Below the pieces are notes generated by a model that made no database searches, was not told the DNA's origin, and worked only from the letters and a program-made list of their open reading frames with translations. The position numbers and the translations under genes are program-made. From the NCBI GenBank assembly GCA_963740905.1, contig CAVUFY010000012.1, positions 213,040 through 277,039 on the forward strand: DNA of 64,000 nt, in the 5' to 3' direction. Origin of the DNA: an uncultured delta proteobacterium (GTDB taxonomy: Bacteria; Desulfobacterota; DSM-4660; Desulfatiglandales; HGW-15). Position 1 is the first letter of the stretch; each line of letters begins with the position of its first letter. This document shows, in pieces, positions 6,343 through 64,000 of this stretch.

Positions 6343-6360
6343 AAAATGCGAAGTTAGGGA

Positions 6361-9444: not shown

Positions 9445-9881
9445 TGGAATCATTTGAACCTGTCATTGTAGCTTTTTGCTGTCACTATTGCGCCTATACC
9501 GCGGCGGACATGGCCGGGAGCATGAGGCGCTGTTATCCTGCCAATGTCCATATCATAAAAGTCCCTTGTTCGGGAAAGGTGGATGCGCTCCATCTTTTGA
9601 AGGCATTTCAAAAGGGCGCCGACGGCGTCTACGTAGCCGGGTGCCTGGAAGGAGACTGTCATTTCAAGAACGGCAACATTCAGGCGGCTCGCAGGGTGGC
9701 GTACGTGAAACGGCTTCTGGACGAGATCGGCGTGGGTGGGGAAAGGCTTGAAATGATCACCATGTCAGCCGGCATGGGGGAGCGCTTTGCCGCTACAGCA
9801 GCGGATTTTACCGAAAAGATTCGCCGTCTTGGTCCTAATCCGGCGAAAAGGCCAGGGGTAGGCAAGAGGGCCACCGGTTGA
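9444..9881 (+). CDS. mvhD: MvhD/FlpD-like [2Fe-2S] protein; Cys form
   Basis: IVAFCCHYCAYTAADMAG...IIKVPCSGKVD...GADGVYVAGCLEGDCHFKNGN. The start overlaps the hdrA stop. Confidence 0.9.
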   Translation: MESFEPVIVAFCCHYCAYTAADMAGSMRRCYPANVHIIKVPCSGKVDALHLLKAFQKGADGVYVAGCLEGDCHFKNGNIQAARRVAYVKRLLDEIGVGGERLEMITMSAGMGERFAATAADFTEKIRRLGPNPAKRPGVGKRATG

Positions 9882-10002
9882 CCGGCTGGCTGAAACGCCA
9901 CAAGAGGGTTCCTTTCCTCCCGACTGGGAGGACAGGGTGAAATGGCTCCGATCCTTACAGGAATGAAGACGATCGGATGAGTGCAAAGGAGAAAGGAAAG
10001 AA

Positions 10003-10671
10003 ATGATCACTGCTGAACGAAAACCGATCCTGGAAATCATGGAATACGTCAGGCCCTTTGGCCGAATTCTTCTCCTGGGGTGCAACGAATGTGTCACGGT
10101 GTGCGCCGCAGGAGGTCGTAAGGAAGTGGGGCTCTTGTCCTCGGCTCTCCAGATGGCCTGTATGAAGGAAGGGAAAGTCCTGGATGTGAAGGAGATGACC
10201 CTGGAGCGACAGTGTGACCCCGAATATATTGAAGAGCTGCTTCCTGTCATCAACCAGGTGGATGCGGTCGTGTCGATGGCGTGCGGATGCGGGGTTCAAG
10301 AAGTGGCAAGGCGGTTCAAGGAGAAAGCCGTCTTTCCCGCGGTGAACACGAAATTCATGGGGGCATCAGAGCGGCAAGGTGTATGGGCAGAAAGATGTCA
10401 GGGCTGCGGGGATTGTGTGCTCGGATTGACAGGGGGAGTGTGCCCTATTGCCCGGTGTTCCAAGCGCTTGTTGAACGGCCCGTGTGGCGGTTCCAGTCGA
10501 GGGAAGTGTGAAATCAACCCTGACATCGATTGCGCCTGGCAGCTCATCTGGGACAGGCTAAAGGCTCTAGGGCAGGAAAAGCGTTATGAGGAAATCGCTG
10601 GTGCAAAAGATTGGAGGACCAGTCGCGACGGCGGCCCTAGAAAGATTATCAGAGAGGATCTGGCATCATGA
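10003..10671 (+). CDS. metV: MetV (MTHFR C-terminal-domain-like Zn/Fe-S protein)
   Basis: LLLGCNECVTVCAAGG...CQGCGDCVLGLTGGVCPIARCSKRLLNGPCGGSSRGKCE is characteristic of MetV. There is a 4-nt overlap with metF. Confidence 0.85.
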   Translation: MITAERKPILEIMEYVRPFGRILLLGCNECVTVCAAGGRKEVGLLSSALQMACMKEGKVLDVKEMTLERQCDPEYIEELLPVINQVDAVVSMACGCGVQEVARRFKEKAVFPAVNTKFMGASERQGVWAERCQGCGDCVLGLTGGVCPIARCSKRLLNGPCGGSSRGKCEINPDIDCAWQLIWDRLKALGQEKRYEEIAGAKDWRTSRDGGPRKIIREDLAS

Positions 10672-11591
10672 GAACGGAAAGTGCACTGGAAAAGGTATTG
10701 ACGGCAGGTCATGTGGCGGTGACGTCTGAATGCGGTCCCCCGCGAGGAGCATTGCCGGAGAAAATCAAAGAGAAGGCGGAAATGCTGCGCGGCTATGTGG
10801 ATGCCATCAATGTGACCGACAATCAGACGGCAATGGTACGCATGTCGAGTTTTGCCGCGTGTCTCATCATCAGGCAAATGGGGCTGAATCCCATCCTTCA
10901 AATGGTCACAAGGGATCGGAACCGACTGGCCATGCAAAGCGATATCATCGGTGCCTATTCTCATGGAATTAACACCATGCTTTGCCTTTCGGGAGATCAT
11001 CCCTGTTTTGGAGACCATCCCATGGCGGCAAACGTCTACGATCTGGACTCCATCCAGTTCATTCAGATGGTCAGAACCATGCGGGATAAAGGAAAATTCC
11101 AGGGAGGGGATGAGATCCTGAATCCCCCGAAAATGTTCATCGGCGCCGCGGCTAATCCCTTTGCCGATCCTTTCGAACTGCGGGTGGCCCGGCTGGCGAA
11201 GAAAGTCAATGCGGGAGCGGACTTTGTCCAGACTCAGTGTATCTATGACCTGGAAAGATTTGAAAAGTGGATGGAAGGAGTTCGGGACCGGGGGCTTCAT
11301 GAACGGATCAGCATTCTGGCAGGGGTTACACCTCTCAAGTCGGCCGGTATGGCCAAATACATGAAAAACAAGGTCCCCGGCATGATTGTTCCGGACGAAC
11401 TGATCAAGCGGATGTCAGGCGTTCCGAAGGAAAGGCAACCCGAGGAAGGGCTGAGTATTTGCGTGGAGACTATTCAGAGGCTTAAAGAGGTGAAGGGCGT
11501 CCGCGGTTTCCATATCATGGCCATCGAATGGGAGCAGAAGGTTCCCGAGATCGTGGAAAGGGCAGGGCTCTACCCTCGGCCTGCTGTGTAA
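10668..11591 (+). CDS. metF: Methylenetetrahydrofolate reductase MetF (paralog 2)
   Basis: VTSECGPPRG...INVTDNQTAMVRMSSFAACLIIRQMGLNPILQMVTRDRNRLAMQSDIIGAYSHGINTMLCLSGD. Confidence 0.9.
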   Translation: MRTESALEKVLTAGHVAVTSECGPPRGALPEKIKEKAEMLRGYVDAINVTDNQTAMVRMSSFAACLIIRQMGLNPILQMVTRDRNRLAMQSDIIGAYSHGINTMLCLSGDHPCFGDHPMAANVYDLDSIQFIQMVRTMRDKGKFQGGDEILNPPKMFIGAAANPFADPFELRVARLAKKVNAGADFVQTQCIYDLERFEKWMEGVRDRGLHERISILAGVTPLKSAGMAKYMKNKVPGMIVPDELIKRMSGVPKERQPEEGLSICVETIQRLKEVKGVRGFHIMAIEWEQKVPEIVERAGLYPRPAV

Positions 11592-17742: not shown

Positions 17743-18780
17743 CTAAAAGGTATGGACCGAGGCGGGATCAAAGGAGATGAAAACGTCCATCCCTTCACGT
17801 AACCCCAAATCGACAAGCGATTTTTTGGTCACCAGCGCTCTGAAAGTGAGATCATCCGTTCTCACATGAACTTCATAAGTGAATCCCTGGCCCACCACTG
17901 TCGAAACGACCCCGGGAAAGGAGTTTCCCCGGTTTGAAAGGAAAGGAACGCTATTGACTGTGATGTCTTCCGGTCGAATTGCCAAATGCCGGTGATGATG
18001 CTCGGGTTGGTGGCTTAATAGAACCTGGCATCCCTTTACACGTGCGGTGCCCTTCTGAAATCTCGCTTCAAAGAGGTTCTTCATGCCCACGAATTCGGCC
18101 ACGGCCATAGAGACAGGACTGTGAAAGATATCATGGATGGTACCTACCTGTTCGATTGAGCCCTGGTGAATGACGGCTCCCCGGTCGGCCAGGGCCAGGG
18201 CTTCGCCGAAATCATGGGTCACCATCAGAAAGGTCGTCGTGGAGTTCTGATGGAGCAGCTTTAGGGCGTTGCGGATTTCCTCCCTGAAAACGGGATCGAT
18301 GGCGGAGAGGGGTTCGTCCAGGAGAAGGACGTGGGGTTGGACGATGAGGGCTCTTGCCAGGGCAACGCGCTGTTTTTCTCCTCCGCTCAGGTTAACAGGG
18401 AGCCTGGAAAGCAAGTGGCCGATGCTCAGCGATTCGGTCAGAATTTCGAGCCGGCTTTTCCCTTCTTCCCTGCTCAGGCGGTGGAAACGCAGACCGTAGG
18501 TGACGTTTTCTTTTACACTCAGGTGGGGGAAAAGGGCTTGGTCCTGATAGACGATGCCCACTTCCCTTTTCTCGGAAGGCAGTGCGGTGACGTCTCTTCC
18601 CTGGATGAAGATTTTTCCTCCATCTGCGCGAATCAGCCCGGCGATGGCTTCAAGAAGGACGGTCTTGCCTGCCCCCGTAGGCCCCATGAGCATGAAGAAT
18701 TCGTTCTTTTCAACCTCCAGGTTGATGTTCCTGAGATGAAATGCCAGGAGCCGGATATTCAAATCTTCGATCTTGATCAT
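17743..18780 (-). CDS. wtpC: Molybdate/tungstate ABC transporter ATPase with a C-terminal TOBE-like domain
   Basis: GPTGAGKT, LSGGEKQRVALARAL and LLLDEP motifs. The C-terminal beta-rich tail is typical of ModC/WtpC. Confidence 0.85.
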   Translation of the reverse strand: MIKIEDLNIRLLAFHLRNINLEVEKNEFFMLMGPTGAGKTVLLEAIAGLIRADGGKIFIQGRDVTALPSEKREVGIVYQDQALFPHLSVKENVTYGLRFHRLSREEGKSRLEILTESLSIGHLLSRLPVNLSGGEKQRVALARALIVQPHVLLLDEPLSAIDPVFREEIRNALKLLHQNSTTTFLMVTHDFGEALALADRGAVIHQGSIEQVGTIHDIFHSPVSMAVAEFVGMKNLFEARFQKGTARVKGCQVLLSHQPEHHHRHLAIRPEDITVNSVPFLSNRGNSFPGVVSTVVGQGFTYEVHVRTDDLTFRALVTKKSLVDLGLREGMDVFISFDPASVHTF

Positions 18781-34095: not shown

Positions 34096-34458
34096 TCATC
34101 TATTGTCGGCATCAAGCTTTATGATGTTTGAGACTTTTTCTTCCAGAATTTTGACTTTTTCATAAATGATTTTGAGGTATTGTCTATGATGATCATTGCC
34201 GGTTGATTTTTCGTTGAGCCTCCGTGCAAGCCCCCCTACTACGGTGAGCGAATTTCTCAGTTCATGGGTTATCCTTTTTGACATATCTCCTAAGGCGGCG
34301 AGCCTTTCCGCTGCTATCAACTGATGAGTTCTTTTTTCCAGTTCTGCCATACGTTCCCTGACTTTTTGCTCCAGTGCCTGATTCAAGCTATGGATTTCCT
34401 CATACAGTTGGGAAATTCTTATGACAATGCCGATCTGGTTGGATATGACATAGATCAC
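34096..34458 (-). pseudogene. Truncated paralog of the GAF/HisKA-like gene (C-terminal 120 aa only)
   Basis: IYVISNQIGIVIRISQLYEEIHSLNQALEQKVRERMAELE...ITHELRNSLTVVGGLARRL aligns with the C-terminus of 36963-37835. Confidence 0.5.
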
Positions 34459-35453: not shown

Positions 35454-35697
35454 CCCCAATCCCCGAGGGGGACAATAAGTTTCTTGTTGGTAGGGTTTGA
35501 GCCGCTCCGGCAGTCCCCGGTGGCCATACTTTCATGCGCAAAGTACCTCATTCAGAATAGACAAAGAGAGCCAGCCGGACTATAGTTCTCATTGGTAACT
35601 GCAAGTCTTCCTGTCTTCTTTATTCGATTGCATCTCCCCCTCCTCTGTAGCCCCCGCCTTGCCAAGCTGTCTCAACTTTTCGAATCTACCTGCGAGC

Positions 35698-36048
35698 CTA
35701 GAAGTTGAAGACCTTGGCTTCGGCGGCAAGATCGATCAGATGAGGCGCTCCATCAAGCAACATGTTGGGGAAGAATTTCGACTCGTCAACCTGACGAGCC
35801 TTGGCGCAGGGGATTCAGACCCCGATCCGGACTTCCTTTTCCACCAGGTACGGTAGATAGTCGTTTGGGCAGTCACCGGTAGCTGTCTTGATATCCAGAT
35901 TGCGGGTTTTGTCCGCCCAGCCGACGCCTCCGTCAACGAAGAAAATGTTGACCTTGTATTTTTTGGAGTGAGCGATCTTGGCGAACTGGAAGCATCTCGT
36001 CGCCGCCTCATTGTCGTCCTTGCTCAGCACAAACAAGAAATTCTCCAT
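35698..36048 (-). CDS. DsrE-like selenoprotein (116 aa; Sec encoded by TGA 35815-35817), copy 1
   Basis: MENFLFVLSKDD...KVNIFFVDGGV...EVRIGV-[TGA]-IPCAKARQVDESKFFPNMLLDGAPHLIDLAAEAKVFNF*. The frame stays open for 38 codons after the TGA, and the TGA sits where the DsrE active-site Cys (..yvC..CakaRG..) is expected. Confidence 0.75.
35782..35798 (-). other. Candidate bacterial SECIS hairpin (DsrE-like copy 1)
   Basis: mRNA CUCGUCA-GGU-UGACGAG: a perfect 7-bp stem with a GGU loop, starting 16 nt after the UGA. Confidence 0.65.
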
Positions 36049-36312
36049 GACTTCCTCCCTTGGTCTCGAATTCCTCCTATTTCCTACCCTTCCCACTTGT
36101 CATTGTCACCTTCGGCAGCTCAGGCCTCTTCCCTTGCACCCGCCTCCTCTAATCCCAAGAGTTTTGTGAAAAGCAAAGATCTTATCAGGGTCAAGAATTC
36201 CGACCATAATCTGATCCGGATCCGGAGTTTCGCTGAGGAAGAAAATCGTAGAGCCTTCTCTTCCCCTCTTGGAAAAGAGCCAAGGGCACAAGCTTGAGGT
36301 TTACATTGTTTT

Positions 36313-36329
36313 GCAGTCGCCCCGACTGC
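36313..36329 (-). other. Conserved 17-nt hairpin 11 nt after the TGA of the MoaD-like gene (SECIS-like), copy 1
   Basis: mRNA GCAGUCG-GGG-CGACUGC. It is followed by AAAAC, not a U-tract, and there is no U-tract on the other strand either. Confidence 0.6.
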
Positions 36330-36340
36330 ATGCCTCAAGC

Positions 36341-36622
36341 TCACCCTACGGTCATCAGATGGAGTGTGTCACCATCATTCAGAGCGGCATCCATTCGATT
36401 TTCGTAGGACAGGACCGAGAAATTGACCGCCACTCGCAATCCCATGTCAATCGCTCCATTCTGATCCAGCAGGACCTGATCCACCCCACGACCGTATTTC
36501 CTTGCCATTCCGACGGCAAAATCTCTGATCGTACGGCCCGGAAACTCAAAATCAAGGGCCTTTTTCTTGTTCAGAATCTTGTAGAGCTGCGGCAGACCTT
36601 CAATCTTGAGATGGATTTTCAC
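36341..36622 (-). CDS. MoaD/ThiS-like beta-grasp protein ending ...LMTVG-TGA-GCT-TGA, copy 1
   Basis: (M)KIHLKIEGLPQLYKIL..LDFEFPGRTIRDFAVGMARKYG...LLDQNG...VAVNFSVL....MDAALNDGDTLHLMTVG. AAAGGAGG RBS lies 7 nt upstream of the GTG at 36622. A single Gly stands where MoaD/ThiS proteins end in GG. Confidence 0.7.
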   Translation of the reverse strand: MKIHLKIEGLPQLYKILNKKKALDFEFPGRTIRDFAVGMARKYGRGVDQVLLDQNGAIDMGLRVAVNFSVLSYENRMDAALNDGDTLHLMTVG

Positions 36623-36733
36623 TCGTAGACCTCCTTTCACACGGGTTACAAGGACACGCTCGCTTCCCTCAATAATCCACGGTCGGGAAGAGCCTCCTGT
36701 CCGTGAGCGGCAGAAACATGATTTTATGAATTC

Positions 36734-36982
36734 TCAATCCCAGGGCCGGACCAACCGCTTTCCATCCCTCAGCTCACCCTTCACTTTTTCCATATGGCGC
36801 AGCGAGGCGAGTTCACGCTCGATGTCCTCCTTTTTTGATTGAAGGAGTTCGGAGAGTTTACCTGGTTCAACGGGACCTTGCGGGCATTGCTCATTTTTCT
36901 CCTTTGACTTGACAAGAGAACCCTTCTTCCACTCGCTCATCCCACCAACCGGCGTCTGGCGGTCACTCTTCCCCGGTACCAA
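36734..36982 (-). pseudogene. Truncated copy of the Zn-ribbon/wHTH gene (C-terminal wHTH part only)
   Basis: ...GPVEPGKLSELLQSKKEDIERELASLRHMEKVKGELRDGKRLVRPWD matches the C-terminus of 44404-44766. The N-terminal 35 aa are unrelated and the Zn ribbon is missing. Confidence 0.45.
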
Positions 36983-37835
36983 AATTTATGAGGTTTGAAA
37001 CCTTTTCTTCCAAAACCTTAACCTCTTCGAGGATGATCTCGATGTACTTTGCATTAGGATCATTTTCGTTCGATTTCTCATGGAGCCTCCGGGCAAAGCC
37101 CCCGACGACTGTAAGGGAATTCCTGACTTCATGGGCTATTCTTCTTGACATTTCGCCTAATGTGGCAAGCCTTTCGGCCTCTAAGAGCTGCTGAGTTTTT
37201 GCTTCCAATTCTGCAGTTCTTTCTCGTACCTTTTGTTCGAGGTCTTGATTCAATTTGGAGATTTCCTCATACAGTGATGAAATCCTTATCGCGATGCCAA
37301 TCTGGTTCGATATGACATAGATCACGTCATTGAAGCGCTCGTGGAAGTAATTCTTTCTCTTGGAAGACGTCACCAAAACCCCAATCGTTTCTCCTTCAAC
37401 TTTTATAGGCGTAACCGCAAAAGACTTGATACCCTCGCAGACGATGCGATTCGTTGAGATGGGTTTGTCAGTTTGTTCAGCATCGTTGACAATGACGATT
37501 CTGCCCGTAAGAAAACAGTCCCCCGAGAAGCTATCAATAGTGGGTTTTCTTGTCGTTTGTTCTACGAATGCTTTGCTCAAGCCCTTCTGACTTTTGATTC
37601 TTAGGTTGCCATCGCTGTCCAGCAAACGGATGGAACAGGCATCTAGGTTGAACTCGTCTACAAGCAGATTAATAATGGCATCAAGGACAAGCTGGACATC
37701 GAGAAGAGATGAAACATACCTCGTAATCTCATAGAGGATTCTGATCTTCTGTTCAGCCTCTCTAGTTCGTCTGGAGATCGGATCCATTTCCAGGGTGACC
37801 TTCTCTTTTCCCTTCAAAGAAGTATTCAAAGCCAA
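36963..37835 (-). CDS. GAF + HisKA-like dimerisation domain protein lacking an ATPase domain
   Basis: GAF-like region (...LDACSIRLLDSDGNLRI...FLTGRIVIVNDA...), a coiled coil and an H-box-like RIAHEVRNSLTVVGGFARRL. The ORF ends ~40 aa later with no N/G boxes. Confidence 0.7.
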   Translation of the reverse strand: MALNTSLKGKEKVTLEMDPISRRTREAEQKIRILYEITRYVSSLLDVQLVLDAIINLLVDEFNLDACSIRLLDSDGNLRIKSQKGLSKAFVEQTTRKPTIDSFSGDCFLTGRIVIVNDAEQTDKPISTNRIVCEGIKSFAVTPIKVEGETIGVLVTSSKRKNYFHERFNDVIYVISNQIGIAIRISSLYEEISKLNQDLEQKVRERTAELEAKTQQLLEAERLATLGEMSRRIAHEVRNSLTVVGGFARRLHEKSNENDPNAKYIEIILEEVKVLEEKVSNLINFGTGEE

Positions 37836-38055: not shown

Positions 38056-38940
38056 TTAACATAAGGTGATTGGGGTGTCCAGAAACCCCACCTGTCTAAG
38101 ATGGGCAGCTCCATGCTTAAGTGCCGCTATCCCCCCCCCAGCATCCCGCCGGTTTGTTCGCTGCCTAGGCGTCAAACACAATGGTTCCTTCTTCAATATC
38201 TCGCGGCCAATTCGTATCCAGCCCTTGTAGCGCCCGAGCAAAGGATCCAGATCCTCTCCGCTGATTCCGAAATCGGGAGACATCTCATTGCCCGACACCG
38301 TAACGATAATAGGTTTGCCCGGCGCTCCCGCTTTTACGGCGGCGAATACTTCTCTTGCGAAGAGCATTCGATCCCGGCCATAGGGATCCTCTCTTCGGTT
38401 GATCTTGCCGTTGAGAAATTGGGAGATCAGGTACCCGTGGCCAGCCTGGACCTCGATGAGATCGAATCCCGCGGCCACCGCTTTTTCCGCTGCCGCTTCA
38501 TACCCGCAAACAACGGTTCGCACTTCCTCTTCGCTCAGAGGATCCGCCTCCTGACGATACGTGGGGCAGGTGACGGCAGAAGGGGCTTTCGGTTTGCCGC
38601 CTATGAGCTTGGGATTGGCGGCGGCGCCGGCGTGATTCAGGTGGAGGCAGGCGACACGATGCTCCTCATGGATGACATCCGCGATTCTCTTGAGCTGCGC
38701 AACACTACCGGGGAGATGGATGCAGAGCTGTCTGGGGTGTTCCCTCCCCTCGGGTGTGACGCCAACAGGCTCCAGGATGACCAGTGCAGGGCCGTCTTGG
38801 GCGATTCGGCGGTAGAAAAGCAGTTGACGGTTTGTCACCGTGCCGTCAGGATCCCCGTAGCCGAGTTTGATCGGTAGGAACACGAACCGGTTTGCGAGCT
38901 TGACGGAATCCAGTGAAAACGGCTTGAAGAGATCTTCCAT
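38056..38940 (-). pseudogene. Old-yellow-enzyme-like NADH:flavin oxidoreductase, N-terminal TIM-barrel part only
   Basis: FKPFSLDSVKLANRFVFLPI...LNHAGAAAN...FDLIEVQAGHGYLISQFLNGKINRREDPYG is OYE-like. After ~235 aa the sequence loses family resemblance in all three frames. Confidence 0.55.
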
Positions 38941-39021: not shown

Positions 39022-39336
39022 TCAACAACCCGATCCAACTCCTCCCCCCGCTTTCCCTCCGCCCTTCCTGAGGCGAATAAGATAATGATCGATTTCATCC
39101 CGTATGCACATCACTTCGCAGGAACAGATCCCTAAGATCTTCAAGAACTCTCTGCGGGTATCTGGATCCGAACCGATGATCTCCATGATTTCTCCGACTC
39201 TAATCTTCCTGAACTTCTGGGCGATTTTCAGCAAGGTAAGAGGAATGATCATTCCTCTCAGATCAAGAATGTTTTCCACTGCTGGTTCCAATAGAGAACT
39301 TGTTTTCTCGCCTTTTTCCCCGTCTCTTCTGATCAT
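39022..39336 (-). CDS. TusA/SirA-like protein lacking the conserved Cys (start uncertain)
   Basis: ILDLRGMIIPLTLLKIAQKFRKIRVGEIMEIIGSDPDTRREF resembles TusA LD.RG..CP.P.L. However, Cys-Pro is replaced by Ile-Pro. Confidence 0.45.
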   Translation of the reverse strand: MIRRDGEKGEKTSSLLEPAVENILDLRGMIIPLTLLKIAQKFRKIRVGEIMEIIGSDPDTRREFLKILGICSCEVMCIRDEIDHYLIRLRKGGGKAGGGVGSGC

Positions 39337-39362
39337 ACTTGGTATAGGTGGAAGACCGGAAA

Positions 39363-39560
39363 TCACCTTCCTCCTGTTGGAAAGGCCATTTCGTCGCACC
39401 TCCAGCATCCCTGCTTCCTGAGATCTTTATGGGGGTTGATATTCTTGTCGCAGAGCCACGTGCATCCACTGTCATCCTTGAAGAATTTCAATGGACGGGC
39501 CGCCATGTGGCCGCAAAGCTCAGTGTAGTCATCCACTCTTGCTTCGTTCCTGTTTTCCAT
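39363..39560 (-). CDS. Small Cys-rich hypothetical protein
   Basis: 65 aa with a GGAGG RBS 6 nt upstream. The Cys pattern is C-x16-C-x3-C-x14-C-x2-C. Confidence 0.4.
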   Translation of the reverse strand: MENRNEARVDDYTELCGHMAARPLKFFKDDSGCTWLCDKNINPHKDLRKQGCWRCDEMAFPTGGR

Positions 39561-40644: not shown

Positions 40645-41670
40645 TCAACCTCCTATACTATTCATAGAGCGAACGCATTTCCGTGGACCATATATATCCA
40701 AACCATGGTTTGCGGGTTTATTGAAGATCACGTTCGTGATGAGTTCAAGCAAATGCGAATTCTCTTTTCCTTGCCTTAGAGGTGTTTTGATATCTGTTTC
40801 CTGCTCGGAGAAAAGACACCCTCTCAAGTGGCCGTCCGCCGTCAACCGAAGGCGGTTGCATTTCTCGCAAAAATGGTGACTTAGAGCACCGATCAGCCCG
40901 ATCTCCCCTTTGGCATCTTTCAGGGCGTACCGCTGAGCGGGGCCGTCCAGTGGCTTGGAATCCAGGGGCGTGATGGGTCCCAGGCGCCGAATCATGCTAA
41001 GGATTTCCTTGATAGAGACAAACCTCTCAGCGGTCCAGGAATTTTTTACGCCCACAGGCATCATTTCGATAAAGCGGACATGATAGGGTTTTCTGAACGT
41101 GAGGCATGCAAAATCCAGGATCTCGTCGTCATTCATACCCCTCATTGCAACCATGTTGATCTTGATGGGTTGCAGCCCCGCAGATTCCGCTGCTTCAATT
41201 CCTTCCCAGACCCGTTCAAAATAGTCTCGCCCGGTAATCTGGTAGAATCTTTCCGGCCTTAGCGTGTCCATGCTCACGTTAACTCGGCAGATTCCACATT
41301 CCCGGAGGGGACGGGCAAAGTCCTTGAGAAGAACGCCGTTGGTGGTCAAGCTGATTTCTTCCAGTCCATCGATGTCACAAAGCCTCTCGATAAAGGGGAT
41401 AATGCCTTTTCTAACCAGCGGCTCGCCGCCTGTAAGCCTTACCTTTCGGATACCGTGCAGGACGCTAAGGCTTACCACGCGAAGCATTTCTTCATAGGTC
41501 AAAATTTCATTGTGGGGTACGAATTCGACACCTTCTTCAGGCATGCAGTAGATACACCTCAGATTGCAACGATCGGTCACGGAAAGACGCAGGTAGTTAA
41601 TTATTCGGTGGTTGTTATCCACAAAATCGGTCTTCGTGCTCAACGCGAGCGGTGATTTCAGCTTCTGCAT
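40645..41670 (-). CDS. moaA: GTP 3',8-cyclase MoaA
   Basis: YLRLSVTDRCNLRCIYCMPEEG...RLTGGEPLVR...C-terminal ...CEKCNRLRLTADGHLRGCLF. Confidence 0.92.
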   Translation of the reverse strand: MQKLKSPLALSTKTDFVDNNHRIINYLRLSVTDRCNLRCIYCMPEEGVEFVPHNEILTYEEMLRVVSLSVLHGIRKVRLTGGEPLVRKGIIPFIERLCDIDGLEEISLTTNGVLLKDFARPLRECGICRVNVSMDTLRPERFYQITGRDYFERVWEGIEAAESAGLQPIKINMVAMRGMNDDEILDFACLTFRKPYHVRFIEMMPVGVKNSWTAERFVSIKEILSMIRRLGPITPLDSKPLDGPAQRYALKDAKGEIGLIGALSHHFCEKCNRLRLTADGHLRGCLFSEQETDIKTPLRQGKENSHLLELITNVIFNKPANHGLDIYGPRKCVRSMNSIGG

Positions 41671-43411: not shown

Positions 43412-43466
43412 GATATGCCTCCTTTCTGCTCAGAGCTGTCTCAACTTTTCGAATCTACCTGCGAGC

Positions 43467-43817
43467 CTAGAAGTTGAAGACCTTGGCTTCGGAGGCAAGA
43501 TCGATCAGATGAGGCGCTCCATCAAGCAACATGTTGGGGAAGAATTTCGACTCGTCAACCTGACGAGCCTTGGCGCAGGGGATTCAGACCCCGATCCGGA
43601 CTTCCTTTTCCACCAGGTACGGTAGATAGTCGTTTGGGCAGTCACCGGTAGCTGTCTTGATATCCAGATTGCGGGTTTTGTCCGCCCAGCCGACGCCTCC
43701 GTCAACGAAGAAAATGTTGACCTTGTATTTTTTGGAGTGAGCGATCTTGGCGAACTGGAAGCATCTCGTCGCCGCCTCATTGTCGTCCTTGCTCAGCACA
43801 AACAAGAAATTCTCCAT
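43467..43817 (-). CDS. DsrE-like selenoprotein (Sec encoded by TGA 43584-43586), copy 2
   Basis: Same protein as copy 1. The ORF-track entry 43584-43817 stops at the in-frame TGA, and the frame stays open to TAG 43467-43469. Confidence 0.75.
43551..43567 (-). other. Candidate SECIS hairpin (DsrE-like copy 2)
   Basis: Identical CUCGUCA-GGU-UGACGAG. Confidence 0.65.
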
Positions 43818-43982
43818 GACTTCCTCCCCTATTCTCCAATTCCTCCTTCCTCCTACCCGTCCTCACTTCTCATTTCCACCTTCGGCAGCCCATGCCTCTT
43901 CCCTTGCAACCGTCTGTTTCCTCCCCGATCTTCTCCTCTTGGAAAAGAGCCGAGGGCGTAAGGTTGATGTTTACTTTGTTTT

Positions 43983-43999
43983 GCAGTCGCCCCGACTGC
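43983..43999 (-). other. Conserved post-TGA hairpin of the MoaD-like gene, copy 2
   Basis: GCAGUCG-GGG-CGACUGC, 11 nt after TGA 44011-44013. Confidence 0.6.
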
Positions 44000-44010
44000 A
44001 TGCCTCAAGC

Positions 44011-44292
44011 TCACCCTACGGTCATCAGATGGAGTGTGTCACCATCATTCAGAGCGGCATCCATTCGATTTTCGTAGGACAGGACCGAGAAATTGACCGC
44101 CACTCGCAATCCCATGTCAATCGCTCCATTCTGATCCAGCAGGACCTGATCCACCCCACGACCGTATTTCCTTGCCATTCCGACGGCAAAATCTCTGATC
44201 GTACGGCCCGGAAACTCAAAATCAAGGGCCTTTTTCTTGTTCAGAATCTTGTAGAGCTGCGGCAGACCTTCAATCTTGAGATGGATTTTCAC
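44011..44292 (-). CDS. MoaD/ThiS-like beta-grasp protein, copy 2
   Basis: Protein identical to copy 1, with the same RBS and the same TGA-GCT-TGA ending. Confidence 0.7.
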   Translation of the reverse strand: MKIHLKIEGLPQLYKILNKKKALDFEFPGRTIRDFAVGMARKYGRGVDQVLLDQNGAIDMGLRVAVNFSVLSYENRMDAALNDGDTLHLMTVG

Positions 44293-44403
44293 TCGTAGAC
44301 CTCCTTTCACACGGGTTACAAGGACACGCTCGCTTCCCTCAATAATCCACGGTCGGGAAGAGCCTCCTGTCCGTGAGCGGCAGAAACATGATTTTATGAA
44401 TTC

Positions 44404-44766
44404 TCAATCCCAGGGCCGGACCAACCGCTTTCCTTCCCTCAGCTCACCCCTCACTTTTTCCATATGGCGCAGCGAGGCGAGTTCACGCTCGATGTCCTCC
44501 TTTTTTGATTGAAGGAGTTCGGAGAGTTTACCTGGTTCAATGGGCCCTTGCATGTGGAGCAATTCAAGGATCTCCTTTTGAAGCTTGTTGAGTTGCGGTT
44601 CATCCTCCTGTTCTTTCAAGAACGTCTTTGCGCTATACACCGCCCACGGATCACAACCTTTTACCGGGGAAAGGAGGTCCATGTAACAATCTTCACAAAG
44701 AATCAGCCCGTGAAGTTCTTTTTCTTCCCCCTCGATGATAACGACGTTACATCTCTGACATTGCAT
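44404..44766 (-). CDS. Zn-ribbon + winged-helix protein (full-length copy)
   Basis: MQCQRCNVV...LILCEDCYMDLLSPVKGCDPWAV (CxxC...CxxC) followed by ...LNKLQKEILELLHMQGPIEPGKLSELLQSKKEDIERELASLRHMEKVRGE (wHTH-like). Confidence 0.55.
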   Translation of the reverse strand: MQCQRCNVVIIEGEEKELHGLILCEDCYMDLLSPVKGCDPWAVYSAKTFLKEQEDEPQLNKLQKEILELLHMQGPIEPGKLSELLQSKKEDIERELASLRHMEKVRGELREGKRLVRPWD

Positions 44767-47433: not shown

Positions 47434-47904
47434 TCATTTTTCGGGTCGTGTTCCCGGTTCGAGATTATCTTTTCTAAGCTGTTTCCTCATATAGTCGTCG
47501 AGGGCTTCCTGGAGCGTTTCCGCAGCGAGAAAGGCGCAGTGCCGATCCTCCTTGGGCAGACCGCCAAGAACATCGAGGATCATTTCGCCCGTAATCTCCG
47601 CAATCTCGTCGGAACTCCTGCCGTGGGCAAGCTCGGCTGCGAAAGAACCGCAAACCGTGCTGGAGCCACATCCATCAGTTTGAAATGTCGCCTCTTTCAC
47701 CCTGTCCTTTTCGAATCTCAAAAAAATCTCCATCGTGTCGCCGCATGTCCCCTTGACACGGCCGTACCCTTCCGGATTGGGAATCACTCCGATGTACAGA
47801 GGCTTAAGCCATCTTTCGAAAGCTACCTGCCCGTATGTCTCCCTTGTCTCTTCATAGATCTGATCCTGTAACGCCCTGGCAAATTCATCGAGTTCGTCAG
47901 CCAT
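47434..47904 (-). CDS. IscU/NifU-N-like Fe-S scaffold protein
   Basis: KGTCGDTMEIFL...QTDGCGSSTVCG...EDRHCAFLAAETLQEAL. Confidence 0.8.
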   Translation of the reverse strand: MADELDEFARALQDQIYEETRETYGQVAFERWLKPLYIGVIPNPEGYGRVKGTCGDTMEIFLRFEKDRVKEATFQTDGCGSSTVCGSFAAELAHGRSSDEIAEITGEMILDVLGGLPKEDRHCAFLAAETLQEALDDYMRKQLRKDNLEPGTRPEK

Positions 47905-47921: not shown

Positions 47922-48495
47922 CTATTTATCCTCAATTTCTCTGAGTCTTGATTCGATCGATTCCATTTGCTTTCGCATTTCGTCAGCCTGTTGTCTGAGA
48001 CGGGCAATTTCTTCCTTTCGGGATGGGAGATCCGGCTCCGGATTGATCGGCACTCCTGCCGCCGGTCATGCCTCTCCCGCGGCCTATTCCCCCGCCCATG
48101 CCGCGGCCCATCCCGCGGCCCATCCCGAAATGGCTCTGTACACTGGGGGCTGTTGTGGGGGAAAGCTCCCCTGCCTTGAATCGCTCAACCGCCTTCCGGA
48201 CCTGGCCCGTTATTCCGGTTAGCACCTGAATTCCGGCGGCTCCAAAGGTTTGAAAGGCATTGGGGCCGCAGTTCCCGGTCAGCACAACCGAAACGCCTTT
48301 GCTTGCCATGAGCTGGGCCGACTGAATGCCGGCGCCGCCCCCCAGCGCGATGTTCGGATTCTCTATGGGTTCGAAATCCAAACCGTCCGGATCGATGATT
48401 AAAAAGTATGCACATCGTCCAAACCGTGATTCCACTGTGTCTTCGAGTGTGGGTCCGGTAGAAGTCACAGCGATTTTCATCCTATTCTTCGACAT
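47922..48495 (-). pseudogene. NifX/NifB-like domain + Gly/Met-rich linker + DUF5320-like coiled coil, one frameshift
   Basis: MKIAVTSTGPTLEDTVESRFGRCAYFLIID...VVLTGNCGPNAFQTFGAAGIQV..., then GMGRGMGRGMGGG. After ...GAGSPI the +1 frame reads RKEEIARLRQQADEMRKQMESIESRLREIEDK* (shift window 48018-48030). Confidence 0.65.
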
Positions 48496-48642: not shown

Positions 48643-49635
48643 TCAAACGCAGAAACGGCATCCTTTTTTAACATTATTCACACGCGGGTATGAGCCTATC
48701 CCTTCTCTGATTGCGGCGACAAAGTAAATGGAACCACTTGAGCGTTCAGTGTGGATTTGTCCTTGCCGCAGGAGGTTGCCAAGGTATTTAGACACCTCGT
48801 TGAGATGCATACCGAAGGCACCCGCAATCTCCTCCGCCGTGCAGGGCCGCCTGTTTAGCATGGAAATGATCGCCTCCCGATTGGCTCGGATTTCAAAACC
48901 GCCTTTATCCTTGTACTCTGCAATCACTTCCGCCGGGGGTCGAAATAGATGACACAGGGAGGCTAAGCGCTCGCTGGAAAGGGGTGCAACAAAATCCTCT
49001 GCGGGAGGGCGAACAGCCGTATTCAAATGAATCCGATCCGGTTTGAGCAGATCCGCCAGCGCAGCAATCTTTGCCACATCGGAAGGAATCGAGTTCATAC
49101 CCGCAACAAGGAACACTTCTATCCACATCTCTCCTTTGAACTCATTGCGGAAGGCCTTTTGCCCCTCAATCAACCGCTTGAAATCGAGATCCGGATGCGG
49201 ACGGTTCACCCATCCGTAAGACGCCTGGTCCCACGCGCTCAGAGAAATCTTGACGATATGGGCTTGCAAGGCTTGCCTGCGGACTTCCGGCAGATAAAAG
49301 AGAGAGCCATTTGTCAGCAAAACCGCTTTTATAACGCTATTCTTTCTGACAAACCCGAGCACCTCCCCAAAGCAGGAATGAAGCGTTGGTTCTCCGGAAC
49401 CGGAAAGGGTGATATGATCCGCCTTTCCACCCCTTTTCAACCAGTTCCCGAGCTCATCGAGCACTTCCCCAACAGGCACATATTCCCGCCTGGTGACCGT
49501 CTTGCTTGGGGTTGGTCCAAGCTGGCAAAAGACGCAATCCTGGCTGCATGTCTTATAAGGCGTTACATCCACTCCCAGAGACCGTCCCAGTCGACGTGAC
49601 GGAACAGGTCCGAATATATATTTGTATTCTCCCAT
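48643..49635 (-). CDS. Radical SAM protein with a C-terminal winged-helix-like domain
   Basis: PSRRLGRSLGVDVTPYKTCSQDCVFCQLG (CxxxCxxC)...ITLSGSGEPTL. The C-terminus is ...EEIAGAFGMHLNEVSKYLGNLLRQGQI. Confidence 0.8.
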   Translation of the reverse strand: MGEYKYIFGPVPSRRLGRSLGVDVTPYKTCSQDCVFCQLGPTPSKTVTRREYVPVGEVLDELGNWLKRGGKADHITLSGSGEPTLHSCFGEVLGFVRKNSVIKAVLLTNGSLFYLPEVRRQALQAHIVKISLSAWDQASYGWVNRPHPDLDFKRLIEGQKAFRNEFKGEMWIEVFLVAGMNSIPSDVAKIAALADLLKPDRIHLNTAVRPPAEDFVAPLSSERLASLCHLFRPPAEVIAEYKDKGGFEIRANREAIISMLNRRPCTAEEIAGAFGMHLNEVSKYLGNLLRQGQIHTERSSGSIYFVAAIREGIGSYPRVNNVKKGCRFCV

Positions 49636-49659: not shown

Positions 49660-50001
49660 TCAACAGTGGGGGCATCCTGTCATTATAAATCTTGGGCCTC
49701 TCAGGGAACCGTTCAGATAAGCATCCAACACTTGATCTGCTTGTCCGCAGATGAACGGGATCAACCGAATCCCATAGCCTTCCACGAGACTGACGAAGAA
49801 ATCCGAGATAGCGCCGCAGATAAAAATCTTTGCCTCGAGGTGAGCGAGCCTTCTGGCGCGGTAGAACACGGACTCTGTGTTAAGAGAGTCAGTACGCCGG
49901 CACCGAATGGCTCGATCTTCAACATCCACGACAAGCAACTGCCTGGCCGAGTCTGCAACAGGAGAAATCCGGTCTTCCCAGACGGTCAGGACCACTTTCA
50001 T
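49660..50001 (-). CDS. NifX/NifB-like small protein (paralog of 31060-31422)
   Basis: MKVVLTVWEDRISPVADSARQLLVVD...FICGAISDFFVSLVEGYGIRLIPFICGQADQVLDAY. Confidence 0.65.
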   Translation of the reverse strand: MKVVLTVWEDRISPVADSARQLLVVDVEDRAIRCRRTDSLNTESVFYRARRLAHLEAKIFICGAISDFFVSLVEGYGIRLIPFICGQADQVLDAYLNGSLRGPRFIMTGCPHC

Positions 50002-50046: not shown

Positions 50047-50259
50047 CAGATAGCAGGGAATCCTACAAGGGCATAAAATATTGAGCTATCAGTAAGTTAG
50101 CTTAAGAAAGAGAAGGGGAGGGCAACAAGGAAGATTTCTTTTTTTGCAACCCGAAGATATTTGAAGTAGCATCATTGCGACCTTATTGGTTTCAGGCCCA
50201 GATAGCTCCCTCAAGCTAACCATCCGCAGTGTAACCACATAGAGCTCAAGACGTTTTTT

Positions 50260-50276
50260 GCAGTCGTCCCGACTGC
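50260..50276 (-). other. Conserved post-TGA hairpin of the MoaD-like gene, copy 3
   Basis: mRNA GCAGUCG-GGA-CGACUGC, again exactly 11 nt after TGA 50288-50290. Confidence 0.6.
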
Positions 50277-50287
50277 GTAACTCAGGC

Positions 50288-50569
50288 TCACCCTACGGTC
50301 ATCAGATGGATTGTGTCACCATCATGGAGAGCAGTGTCCATTCGATTTTCATACGACAGGACCGAGAAATTGATCGCTACTCGCAATCCCATGTCAATCG
50401 CACCATTCTGATCCAGCAGGACCTGATCCACCCCGCGACCGTATTTCCTTGCCAGACAAGCGGCGAAATCCCTGATCGTCTGGCCCGGAAAGTCAAAATC
50501 AAGGGCCTTTTTCTTGTTCAGGATCTTGTAGAGCTGTGGCAGACCTTCGATCTTGAGATGGATTTTCAT
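50288..50569 (-). CDS. MoaD/ThiS-like beta-grasp protein, copy 3 (ends ...LMTVG-TGA-GCC-TGA)
   Basis: MKIHLKIEGLPQLYKILNKKKALDFDFPGQTIRDFAACLARKYG...MDTALHDGDTIHLMTVG. ATG start with an AAAGGAGG RBS. Confidence 0.7.
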   Translation of the reverse strand: MKIHLKIEGLPQLYKILNKKKALDFDFPGQTIRDFAACLARKYGRGVDQVLLDQNGAIDMGLRVAINFSVLSYENRMDTALHDGDTIHLMTVG

Positions 50570-50763
50570 TTGTAGACCTCCTTTCACATGTATTTCAGAA
50601 ACGGTTCGCTTCCCTCGATTTCAGTTCTTCCTAGAGAGAAAGGGCCTTTTCTTCATTTTTCTCAATCTTGATTCGCTTTGAACCGGCAAAATAGATTTCT
50701 TTCGGATGATTTCCCTGTTCCTCCCTTTCCGCTGACGACGACCGATTCTCTGACTTAAGAGAT

Positions 50764-51020: not shown

Positions 51021-51638
51021 TTATTCCGGCTCACTTGGTTCATCATAATGAAGGAGACGCTCCCGCCTGATCGAGTACGCCAGGAATTCTGAGCAGTAGT
51101 CACAAAAGGCGAGAGATGCCCTATCCAGGTCAGCAAGGTTTCCCGAGTAGTGCATCAGGCACTGTGTGTTCAGGCAATGGGCCATATTGAAGAGGTGGCC
51201 CAACTCATGAATGGCCACCTTGACCAGTCTCTCGACGATTTGATCGAAAGAAACGGGAAGCCTATCTGTGGCCTTGCCCAGTCTGTAGAGGGAGGCAAGA
51301 GCATACCTGCCCCCCTCATTGGCTTCTCCCAGAACATGGGTGAAGATAGGAATGAAAAGATCCACGTCCATCACGCAGATCACTTTATCCATCTCCTCAT
51401 CAAAGGGCATGGAATTTAAAGCCTTGAGGATAATCGCAGCATTGTACTGTCCCCGCTTTTGATCGTAGGCGTAGGCGGGGTTTTGAAAAGGAGAAAGAAT
51501 ATGGGCCTCCAGATTGAGGTGGGTTTGGATATAGGTCGCGACACCATCCAGCGCCGCGTCAGAGACCTCACCAAAGGGTGCCACACCGATGCATATTTTT
51601 TTCAGATTCATAAGGGAAGGGGATTCCAAAAGGGTCAT
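51021..51638 (-). CDS. amzA: Archaemetzincin (peptidase M54)
   Basis: HELGHLFNMAHCLNTQCLMHYSGNLADLD......CDYC. Confidence 0.8.
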   Translation of the reverse strand: MTLLESPSLMNLKKICIGVAPFGEVSDAALDGVATYIQTHLNLEAHILSPFQNPAYAYDQKRGQYNAAIILKALNSMPFDEEMDKVICVMDVDLFIPIFTHVLGEANEGGRYALASLYRLGKATDRLPVSFDQIVERLVKVAIHELGHLFNMAHCLNTQCLMHYSGNLADLDRASLAFCDYCSEFLAYSIRRERLLHYDEPSEPE

Positions 51639-62474: not shown

Positions 62475-63638
62475 TTATCCTTTTACTTGAGTACGAAGGA
62501 AGATGCGAACGAGCGAATCCCATCCCACCTCAGGGAAGCTTCCGAACAGGTCTTCTGTGGGCTCGCCGCCTGTGGCTGCCAGTCGCGCATACTCGGGTCC
62601 AAGGGACTCAAGGAGAAGCCGATTTTCCCTTTCCATCCATTCCGAGGTTTGCCGGCCGAAATAGAGCGCTTTCAACTCATTCTTGAGATAGTAAGGGTCG
62701 AGCAGGAACAACCATCCGCCGTGGTACGAATCCTGATGGCAGAGGGCCGGATTATCTATTGCTTTGGAGTTGAGAGCTACTACCTTCCCCGACAGAGGCG
62801 ATTGCATGGGCGCCTGGTGGCCGTTGCGAAACATCGCACATCCCACCTCTCCCTGCTTTAGGGAAGCCCCGACAACGGGAAGTCGCAACTCCCTTGCCTT
62901 GCCGAAAACCTTTGCCACGAAGTCGTCCATGCCGACCCGCACATACCCGCCCTGTTCGAGGTGGACCCACAAATGCCCTAAGTGATAGTAATAATCGTCA
63001 GCCAGCGTGTAACCTGATATCCTGCTGTACCTCGGCTCAATAAAAGATTCGTGTTTTGCTCTCGCGGAATGATTTTTGTAGACGCTGCAGCGGAAACATT
63101 CGTGGTTCTCTTTACACTCCTCTGGCATTCCGGCTTTGCCTAGCAGGGCATAGATACACGGCTTCGCGGCCGTTTCGTACGTCTCCTTTATCTGTTCAGC
63201 CCAGTCGGAGGGCGCAGCCCTTCTTCCCCAGCGAACCTCATGTCCCATGGCACGGCGCATGTTCAGGTCGAATTCGCAATGATCACAGTCACACTCATTG
63301 TCGCAAAGGTGAAAGTTGATGATGCGAGCCTTCATCCATATGCATTCCTGTCTTGCAAGAGGGGCAATAGGGGGATTCTTCTTGAGTTCCTCATAAGAGA
63401 CGAGCACGACGCCATCATGGTGCAAATTCTGAACATACTCAGCGCCGGTTACTTTGATCACCTCTTCGTAATCGAAAGGCTGATCAATGCTGATCCAATT
63501 TTGTGGAGCAGGTTGTTTGATGCATGCCGGATTGGTGTCTTTCTCCGGTTTTTCTTGAGCAGAACTCTTTTCCATGAGCACGAGAGCCGGTTGTTTTTTT
63601 TTAGTCTTCTTTCCCCTCCTTGATGGTTCAGTTTTCAT
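62475..63638 (-). CDS. Cys/His-rich protein with a C-terminal GcvH-like domain
   Basis: AAAGGAGG RBS 7 nt before the ATG at 63638 (MKTEPSRRGKK...). The middle has HLCDNECDCDHCEFD and CKENHECFRCSVY. The C-terminus, LADDYYYHLGHLWVHLEQGGYVRVGMDDF...SPLSGKVVALN...GGWLF..., is paralogous to the HdrA-fused domain. Confidence 0.6.
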   Translation of the reverse strand: MKTEPSRRGKKTKKKQPALVLMEKSSAQEKPEKDTNPACIKQPAPQNWISIDQPFDYEEVIKVTGAEYVQNLHHDGVVLVSYEELKKNPPIAPLARQECIWMKARIINFHLCDNECDCDHCEFDLNMRRAMGHEVRWGRRAAPSDWAEQIKETYETAAKPCIYALLGKAGMPEECKENHECFRCSVYKNHSARAKHESFIEPRYSRISGYTLADDYYYHLGHLWVHLEQGGYVRVGMDDFVAKVFGKARELRLPVVGASLKQGEVGCAMFRNGHQAPMQSPLSGKVVALNSKAIDNPALCHQDSYHGGWLFLLDPYYLKNELKALYFGRQTSEWMERENRLLLESLGPEYARLAATGGEPTEDLFGSFPEVGWDSLVRIFLRTQVKG

Positions 63639-63765
63639 CACACAGCCTCCTTTCTCATATGGCACGTTCATGCCGCCAGCCATCCCCTCGCTGCAAGAAC
63701 CGCATGCTTCATTGCGAAAGTCTTTAGGAAAGAGGACTGTCAGCATTCTTCTCATCCTTTGGAAA

Positions 63766-63781
63766 TGCAATGGGGATGCCA
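63766..63781 (-). promoter_or_regulatory. Candidate sigma54 promoter of the GcvH-like/hdrA/mvhD/hdrA operon
   Basis: The minus strand reads TGGCAT-cccca-TTGCA, about 125 nt upstream of the ATG at 63638. Confidence 0.65.
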
Positions 63782-64000
63782 GGGAAGAGGAGGCAGGTTG
63801 ATTCCTGCTCCTGTCTGAAATTGTTATATTTTCCTGTAAAAGGAAGTACAAAATTATCCCCTTGGGATGAGAGCGTGAAAAATTCCGGCTACAAGGAAGG
63901 CGTGCATCTCAGGAATCCGGGCTGGAATATCTTTTAACATCATCGGCTTATGGTACCGTAGCTTTTGTTTACACTAGCTGTAGCCCTTTTAAAGGCTAGG

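Follow-up and report, generated by a model that had tools for sequence, protein, structure and literature searches.

A predicted selenoprotein family of MoaD/ThiS-like beta-grasp carriers with a penultimate selenocysteine

In this article I discuss a short gene on the minus strand of a 64,000-nucleotide stretch of DNA (hereafter the window; contig CAVUFY010000012.1 of assembly GCA_963740905.1) from an uncultured delta proteobacterium, which encodes a MoaD/ThiS-like beta-grasp carrier and in which the UGA codon after Gly93 is very probably read as selenocysteine (Sec). The explanation favoured here as a whole, namely a beta-grasp carrier with a Sec-bearing tail whose function would reside in the selenol, is itself probable, and the carrier looks, from sequence comparison, like a selenoprotein family that had previously escaped cataloguing. 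An initial annotation of the window had pointed to a ribosome-binding site, a 93-residue beta-grasp protein with a DGD ending, the succession TGA-GCT-TGA and a hairpin, all of which are present on the minus strand, and had proposed that the first UGA gives a ...Gly-Sec-Ala tail, a proposal that now finds support in the tails of homologous genes, in covariation of the hairpin, in its fit to a published model of bacterial Sec insertion sequence (SECIS) elements and in a subfamily ending in Cys-Cys. The gene is the first of three paralogous copies in the window and is composed of the following parts:

36630..36637, minus strand: Shine-Dalgarno sequence AAAGGAGG, 7 nucleotides 5' of the GTG start
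36335..36622, minus strand: copy 1 coding sequence, GTG start at 36622 and 93 sense codons (based on sequence, translation, homolog arrangement and fold)
36346-36344, minus strand: Gly93, the final sense codon before the first TGA
36343-36341, minus strand: predicted Sec-UGA
36340-36338, minus strand: GCT (Ala)
36337-36335, minus strand: TGA, the true stop
36312..36330, minus strand: SECIS-like hairpin UGCAGUCG-GGG-CGACUGCA, 8 base pairs, in the 3' untranslated region (based on sequence, covariation and fit to the bacterial SECIS model)

The last sense codons are ...NDGDTLHLMTVG (...DGDTLHLMTVG), none of the 93 sense codons specifies cysteine, and homologs start with MKIHLKIEG at the position matching the GTG start. 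The predicted product of copy 1 is therefore a protein of 95 residues ending ...MTVG-U-A.

The UGA codon and the triplet behind it

A protein search returned 76 clusters with 54-90% identity to the copy 1 protein, all of them annotated in the databases as ending ...MTVG, and the source annotations ('hypothetical protein' in some cases, 'molybdopterin converting factor small subunit' in others) invariably cut the protein at this Gly. The DNA at the 3' ends of the genes was then examined at 11 genome loci and 77 metagenome loci, which gave 69 distinct sequences of gene and tail, 39-91% identical to the query. A TGA follows the last Gly (Ser in two) in 69/69, and neither another stop nor a sense codon takes its place in any of them, while TGA accounts for 43% of the stops of long open reading frames at the same loci; the initial annotation had proposed inspecting ortholog tails, and these are uniform in having TGA and never TAA or TAG at this codon. 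Exactly one codon stands between this TGA and the true stop in 69/69 homologs, Gly in 61 and Ala in 8, and it is spelled GGC (32), GGG (14), GGT (13), GGA (2) or GCN (8), with the first two bases constant and free variation in the third, the signature of a translated codon. The second and true stop drifts among TGA (58), TAA (8) and TAG (3), and an invariant first TGA beside a drifting second stop is difficult to account for if the first is not decoded. L070 and L080, which are contigs of different metagenomes, read ...G-TGT-TGA-GGG-TAG, i.e. Gly-Cys-Sec-Gly, and an intermediate subfamily with ...GAS before the TGA (L079 and L086) likewise has the TGA, a Gly/Ala codon, the stop and the hairpin. 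Judged from these sequences, the succession of TGA, one codon, stop and hairpin is far beyond chance.

The hairpin and other selenocysteine sites in the window

The core of the copy 1 hairpin, GCAGTCG-GGG-CGACTGC at 36329-36313, is extended by a flanking T-A pair to 8 base pairs (36330-36312), and the spacer after the first TGA is therefore 10-11 nucleotides, the hairpin beginning 10 nucleotides past the Sec-UGA and 4 nucleotides past the true stop. A hairpin is present in every TGA-bearing gene of the family, 9-16 nucleotides past the UGA with a mode of 11, which answers in the affirmative the question, raised by the initial annotation, of whether TGA-containing genes always carry it. The family consensus is GCAGUC-N-G[G/U]N-N-GACUGC, in which the first G of the loop is invariant. 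In an alignment of 58 distinct hairpins, double-sided changes occur in 7/8 stem pairs (16 sequences, for instance, have G-C in place of A-U, and 10 have C-G in place of U-A), and 82.8% of the cells are paired, compared with 12-37% after a shift of the 3' side of the stem by 1-3 columns; the observed covariation was reached by 0/500 shuffles.

The published bacterial SECIS (bSECIS) model calls for a loop of 3-9 nucleotides, a stem of 4-16 base pairs, a UGA-to-loop distance of 16-37 nucleotides and a minimum free energy (MFE) of at most -7.5 kcal/mol, with a G within the first two loop positions that is usually part of G[G/U] (PMC13188914). With its 8-bp stem, GGG loop, UGA-to-loop distance of 18 nucleotides and MFE of -10.8 kcal/mol, the copy 1 hairpin fits this model fully, in line with the minimal bacterial SECIS geometry that had been claimed for it, and all four constraints are satisfied by 52/63 hairpins of the family. 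An intrinsic terminator was considered and rejected: AAAACAA and no U-run lies directly 3' of the hairpin, and the terminator scan did not call it, as the initial annotation had already argued from the lack of a U-tract. A search of the hairpin against Rfam for a known RNA family returned noise only.

A scan of the window for in-frame UGA codons followed by a hairpin recovers known selenoprotein types, the sites of which are these:

35698..36048, minus strand: DsrE-like selenoprotein gene directly downstream of copy 1 (PF02635, E 1e-18)
35817-35815, minus strand: Sec-UGA of this gene, in a U-x-x-C motif
35800-35780, minus strand: SECIS of this gene, GGCUCGUCA-GGU-UGACGAGUC
43586: Sec-UGA (U-x-x-C) of a second DsrE-like gene, downstream of copy 2
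62170 and 57496, minus strand: Sec-UGA of two HdrA-like genes, C-A-M-U (CxxU), with the hairpin CUGGUCG-AGGU-CGGCCGG 15 nucleotides downstream
58400, minus strand: UGA of an MvhD-like gene, ...SIFVSG-U-HMGECH, with the hairpin CAUUACC-UGUAC-GGUAAUG starting at 15 nucleotides

Both the DsrE-like (UxxC) and HdrA (CxxU) proteins belong to selenoprotein families catalogued in a review table, and because genes of both types lie in the same window the organism appears to decode Sec. The DsrE-like SECIS has a 9-bp stem with its onset 14 nucleotides past the UGA, and its apex GUCAGGUUGAC (GUC-N-GGU-N-GAC) is the consensus apex of the beta-grasp family hairpins; of the 8 occurrences of GTCNGKNNGAC in the window, 5 lie behind candidate Sec codons. 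On this sequence comparison, the copy 1 hairpin looks like the organism's own SECIS elements. The 'house style' that the initial annotation had described for the Sec sites, with 7-bp stems starting 15-16 nucleotides after the UGA, is roughly right, although the DsrE-like element, with its 9-bp stem and a start at 14 nucleotides, departs from it; the HdrA- and MvhD-like ones start at 15 nucleotides. A covariance model built from the family hairpins scores the three paralog hairpins strongly and the DsrE-like SECIS weakly (E ~1.3, apex only); the model shows similarity of the apex and is no general SECIS detector. As a separate observation, an HdrD/GlpC-like Fe-S oxidoreductase gene with an in-frame stop (...LLLPE-*-GHAYY...) lies directly upstream of the carrier at L045 (3565-4872), and also at L044, L050 and L056, and this split gene fits the known selenoprotein family 'Fe-S oxidoreductase-like, UGH'.

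Relatives, fold and gene neighbourhood

A profile search over 1.8 billion representatives, together with a follow-up search, brought up a sister subfamily (P0091 and P0226-P0230) whose members end ...FMVGG-Cys-Cys, encoded as TGT TGT TAA. In the alignment the first of these Cys residues falls on the Sec column, and the two subfamilies thus form the classical Sec/Cys pair; no SECIS-like hairpin was found at the 3' ends of the Cys-Cys genes, and Cys-ending relatives with an ordinary TAA stop and without a hairpin support the reading of UGA as Sec in the initial annotation. No Cys form was found among the closer orthologs. One Cys-Cys member, P0227 (L100, 625-2648), is flanked by a low-molecular-weight phosphatase/ArsC-type gene on one side and an ArsR-type helix-turn-helix (HTH) regulator gene on the other, surroundings that hint at a metalloid-related role for this subfamily. 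The more remote relatives (E 1e-14 to 1e-5) are numerous, ~95 residues long, and end ...DGDxVxFMLLVAGG, i.e. with the canonical Gly-Gly, and because of these endings the Sec family is, as far as sequence indicates, a derived branch of Gly-Gly carriers whose tail is now Gly-Sec-Gly/Ala. The contigs of the Gly-Gly relatives are ~1 kb in length, too short for much context, and one of them (L101) places the gene between a DUF6775 metallopeptidase gene and a PP-loop tRNA-thiolase-like gene.

AlphaFold2, run on the family alignment, predicts a beta-grasp fold with a mean predicted local distance difference test (pLDDT) score of 93.8 and a predicted template-modelling (pTM) score of 0.85, and the top Foldseek matches in the PDB are SAMP1 (3po0), CysO (3dwg_C), Urm1 and MoaD (1fm0_D), with template-modelling scores of 0.68-0.77 and E values of 3e-5 to 2e-4. 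With SAMP1, archaeal-type MoaD, Urm1 and CysO the carrier shares the fold, the size of ~90-95 residues and the ...DGD-x(n)-small-residue tail, but differs from them in ending Gly-Sec-Ala/Gly and in having NifU_N, DUF364, radical SAM, NifX-like and DsrE-like neighbours. Membership in an existing curated family was likewise considered and rejected, since searches of NCBIfam release 20 and Pfam, which included a full-length version with U replaced by C and the subfamilies, gave sub-threshold matches only to MoaD, SAMP1 (NF041918) and ThiS; PF02597 (ThiS) scored 16.6 bits against a cut-off of 22.5, and TIGR01687 (moaD_arch) 21.3 against 49.5. The Gly-Gly end on which adenylation and thiocarboxylation depend is absent, the tail being Gly-Sec-Ala here and Gly-Sec-Gly in most relatives, and no ThiF/MoeB-type E1, MoaE, ThiG, JAMM or NcsA/TtuA was found in the window or in any annotated neighbourhood. 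Because of these three results, on the tail, the profile thresholds and the E1 partner, the family is not filed within the SAMP1/MoaD/Urm1 family.

Several known systems resemble the carrier in one respect or another. UXX-star, KCU-star/DUF466 and SaoC (Cys-Sec-COOH) also carry Sec 0-2 residues from the C-terminus and for that reason have their SECIS beyond the stop codon, and they too are cut at the UGA in databases and have Cys-Cys-COOH counterparts, but their folds and families are unrelated and their NCBIfam models do not match the carrier. In DsrC/TusE, a penultimate redox-active Cys sits on a mobile C-terminal arm, there is a second conserved Cys, and the protein is linked to DsrE/TusA-type transferases. 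The likeness of the carrier to DsrC/TusE, a penultimate chalcogen on a C-terminal arm together with DsrE- and TusA-type neighbours, is an analogy only, for the carrier is a beta-grasp protein without Cys, whereas DsrC has another fold and uses Cys rather than Sec. The Gly-Cys-Sec-Gly tail of mammalian thioredoxin reductase, with a penultimate Sec on a flexible tail, is exactly that of L070 and L080, but the reductase is a large flavoenzyme with a eukaryotic SECIS in the 3' untranslated region, and most members of the carrier family have no Cys. MoeB, a ThiF-family E1, is the sole catalogued selenoprotein family from the MoaD/ThiS activation pathway; it is an activating enzyme and not a carrier, and it was not found near the carrier genes.

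The three carrier paralogs lie inside 15 kb of the window, and copies 1 and 2, both of which precede DsrE-like selenoprotein genes, are part of a segmental duplication that covers the carrier and DsrE-like genes (36259-36881 corresponds to 43929-44551 at 98%, and 35660-36142 to 43427-43912 at 96%). Copy 3 heads a run of genes for a NifX-like protein, a radical SAM protein, a second NifX-like protein, a NifU_N/IscU-like scaffold and two ParA-ferredoxin proteins:

44005..44292, minus strand: copy 2, identical protein, Sec-UGA at 44013-44011 and hairpin at 43982-44000
50282..50569, minus strand: copy 3, 89% nucleotide identity (50256-50616), UGA at 50290-50288 followed by GCC and UGA
50276-50260, minus strand: copy 3 hairpin, GCAGUCG-GGA-CGACUGC
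49660-50001 and 47983-48495: NifX-like genes of the copy 3 run
48643..49635, minus strand: radical SAM gene of the copy 3 run, motif GPVPSRRLGRSLG...CxxxCxFC, a conserved neighbour in other lineages
47434..47904, minus strand: NifU_N/IscU-like scaffold gene of the copy 3 run (PF01592; TIGR03419 at E 1e-27, below its cut-off)

Within ~10 kb of copy 1 there are also genes for a TusA-like protein (39022-39408), MoaA (40645-41670), NifX-like proteins, CooT, an MBL-fold protein, DUF364/DUF4213 and a CDF transporter fused to a NifX-like domain, and a weak ArsP-like permease match lies in the window neighbourhood. Across the 34 distinct loci that have 5 kb or more of flanking sequence, the conserved gene seen most often beside the carrier is NifU_N, which lies within 6 kb of it in 15/34 and is usually the adjacent gene on the same strand, followed by DUF364 (13), the same radical SAM family (8) and MBL-fold genes (8). 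A Syntrophorhabdus-type operon consists of DUF134/NifX-like, DUF5320, two ParA-Fer4 genes, a ParA-NifX-like fusion, MBL, DUF364, NifU_N and the carrier, and the ~40%-identical ...GAS-U subfamily has an equivalent operon. The DsrE-like protein was considered as a universal partner and dropped, as it is adjacent only in the clade of the window (the window and L096). The hosts are metagenome-assembled genomes of Thermodesulfobacteriota/Deltaproteobacteria, including Syntrophorhabdus, Desulfobacterales and Desulfobacula.

Metallopeptidase genes occur sporadically beside the carrier, with Peptidase_M54 in the window (51021-51638) and at four further loci (L096, L048, L052 and L055), and an M14 zinc carboxypeptidase ~400 nucleotides upstream of it at six (L001, L019-L022 and L051); processing of the carrier tail by these neighbours is possible. 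At L012 (9361-10420; also L013 and L014) the carrier is followed directly by a 33-residue open reading frame that overlaps the 5' end of a 323-residue MBL-fold (Lactamase_B) gene, which may have a wrongly assigned start or may be split. A protein with GAF and HisKA domains and without a detectable ATPase domain is encoded just upstream of copy 1 (36963-37835, minus strand), a HisKA-only partial paralog at 34096-34458 (minus strand) is 76% identical to it, and a GAF-HisKA gene of similar type lies near the carrier at L012-L014. The Old-Yellow-Enzyme-like open reading frame at 38056-38940 (minus strand) matches positions 1-226 of 342 of Oxidored_FMN and continues into unrelated sequence, so it may be frameshifted, truncated or another recoded gene. 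Elsewhere in the window, a 458-residue protein with a glycine-cleavage-H (lipoyl-type) domain (62475-63851, minus strand) adjoins the HdrA genes, two MTHFR genes surround that of a 1027-residue HdrA-like flavoprotein (5455-11591, plus strand), and an ABC ATPase with a TOBE domain is encoded at 17743-18780.

Competing explanations and what the family would mean

In the explanation that I favour, SelB and tRNA-Sec would decode the UGA after Gly93, recruited by the hairpin 10-11 nucleotides downstream, which would lie just outside the reading frame because a single codon (Ala; Gly in most relatives) separates Sec from the stop. The product would be a cysteine-free beta-grasp protein of 95 residues with a flexible Gly-Sec-Ala/Gly tail, the sole redox-active atom of which would be the penultimate selenium, placed on the tail that bears the thiocarboxylate in its relatives, and the working group would be this selenol and not a C-terminal thiocarboxylate. 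The selenol may take up a soft metal, or sulfane sulfur in the form of a Se-S adduct, and pass its cargo on; the sulfur donors may be DsrE- or TusA-type transferases, or else sulfide or polysulfide, the acceptor a NifU/IscU-type scaffold with NifX-like, ParA-ferredoxin, DUF364 and radical SAM partners, and activation of the E1 type with ATP would not be needed. A role of the Sec tail in sulfur relay can be put forward only tentatively. Doubtful, and offered for what it could explain, is a fuller version in which the selenol replaces the ATP/E1-dependent thiocarboxylate chemistry, and a Se-S or Se-metal adduct delivers sulfur directly to the NifU-type scaffold for a cysteine-desulfurase-independent assembly of Fe-S clusters or metalloclusters in strict anaerobes; reversible tagging of partner proteins by selenenylsulfide bonds, and trimming by nearby M14/M54 peptidases to a C-terminal Sec, would also be conceivable in such a scheme.

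Several points weigh against this explanation. The case for Sec is built from comparative sequence evidence, the homologs are phylogenetically related so that 69/69 does not amount to 69 independent trials, and with one residue after Sec the usual test for coding constraint downstream shrinks to a single codon. Among the hairpins, 11/63 fail the strict bSECIS model, mostly through the energy cut-off only or one stem mismatch, and the Cys-Cys subfamily is only 35-42% identical and has another genomic context (LMWPc and an ArsR-type HTH). The competence of the organism for Sec is deduced from the other selenoprotein genes in the window, where selA, selB, selC and selD were not found (0 tRNAs, and none among the Pfam-scanned open reading frames). 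The functional part draws on gene neighbourhood, which is conserved in less than half of the informative loci, with TauE, MFS and unrelated genes in other clades, and the negative result for E1 covers the window and the neighbourhoods, so an E1 elsewhere in the genome is possible.

It is highly improbable that the first UGA is a genuine stop, which would leave a protein with a single-Gly end, a tandem stop UGA-GCU-UGA and a hairpin with a part in stabilising, processing or terminating the mRNA. All 76 database entries do come from gene callers that stop the protein at Gly, and the hairpin sits in a 3' untranslated region, where stabilising hairpins are common, but a genuine stop would be expected to drift as the second one does, and the triplet that follows would not be expected to behave as a Gly/Ala codon with synonymous variation. 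Furthermore, the hairpin stays 9-16 nucleotides from the UGA, the loop retains the G[G/U] of the SelB type, there is no U-tract, the variants with a Cys codon inserted before the TGA retain TGA-GGG-stop, and the Cys-Cys subfamily places Cys at the UGA and dispenses with the hairpin. The main alternative on the side of function accepts the insertion of Sec and regards the tail as a ligand for a soft metal or metalloid, the protein being a metallochaperone that would supply the NifX-like, ParA, DUF364 and NifU machinery, or else efflux systems, with Fe, Ni, Mo/W or As. Such a role seems rather unlikely, since most members have a single Sec and no Cys and would by themselves be poor chelators, the genes closest by in the window encode DsrE-like and TusA-like sulfur-transfer proteins, and the nearest structural relatives are sulfur carriers; however, the sister subfamily ends in Cys-Cys-COOH and some members in Cys-Sec-Gly, and Cys-Cys or Cys-Sec termini have been tied to the handling of metals and organometals in SaoC, HgcB and MbdU. 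The flanks of P0227 (LMWPc of the ArsC type and an ArsR-type HTH), and the CooT, CDF-NifX-like fusion, weak ArsP-like permease and DUF364 ('putative heavy-metal chelation') of the window, speak for a metal role as well.

Sec could also be inserted into what is otherwise a classical E1-activated carrier or modifier, whose terminal Gly/Ala carboxylate would be adenylated and thiocarboxylated or conjugated while Sec assists, for instance in resolving an acyl-persulfide. The fold and small tail residues do resemble those of SAMP/Urm1/MoaD, distant relatives end in Gly-Gly and one of them lies beside the PP-loop tRNA-thiolase-like gene, and a selenoprotein family of MoeB-type E1 enzymes is known. 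The E1 channel through which Gly-Gly passes in the MoeB-MoaD and ThiF-ThiS structures is narrow, so that the side chain of a penultimate Sec should hinder the passage, and with a terminal residue that varies between Gly and Ala and no ThiF/MoeB gene in any neighbourhood inspected, this alternative is improbable.

A MoaD, ThiS, Urm1 or 'sulfur carrier' selenoprotein was not found in the open-access literature searched (a 2022 review, the Haft preprint, and the Olavius and Global Ocean Sampling (GOS) selenoproteome papers), the family is absent from the 119-family prokaryotic selenoprotein catalogue of a May 2026 review, and no model in NCBIfam release 20 covers it, which agrees with the statement of the initial annotation that it knew of no described selenoprotein of the MoaD/ThiS family. 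Since one residue follows Sec, homology across the UGA is undetectable, and the family has probably been missed so far because pipelines need conserved sequence on both sides of this codon. If the Sec-tailed carrier is real, it would add a selenoprotein family that is invisible to standard pipelines, and it would be, within the ubiquitin/MoaD/ThiS superfamily, the first carrier to have a Sec-bearing tail in place of the defining Gly-Gly, implying a different and possibly ATP-independent way to move sulfur or metal. Its linkage to NifU/IscU-like, NifX-like, ParA-ferredoxin, DUF364 and radical SAM genes would provide an entry into a widespread cluster of anaerobic Thermodesulfobacteriota that is without a model-based functional assignment, and would bear on how sulfur is supplied to cofactor assembly in these organisms.

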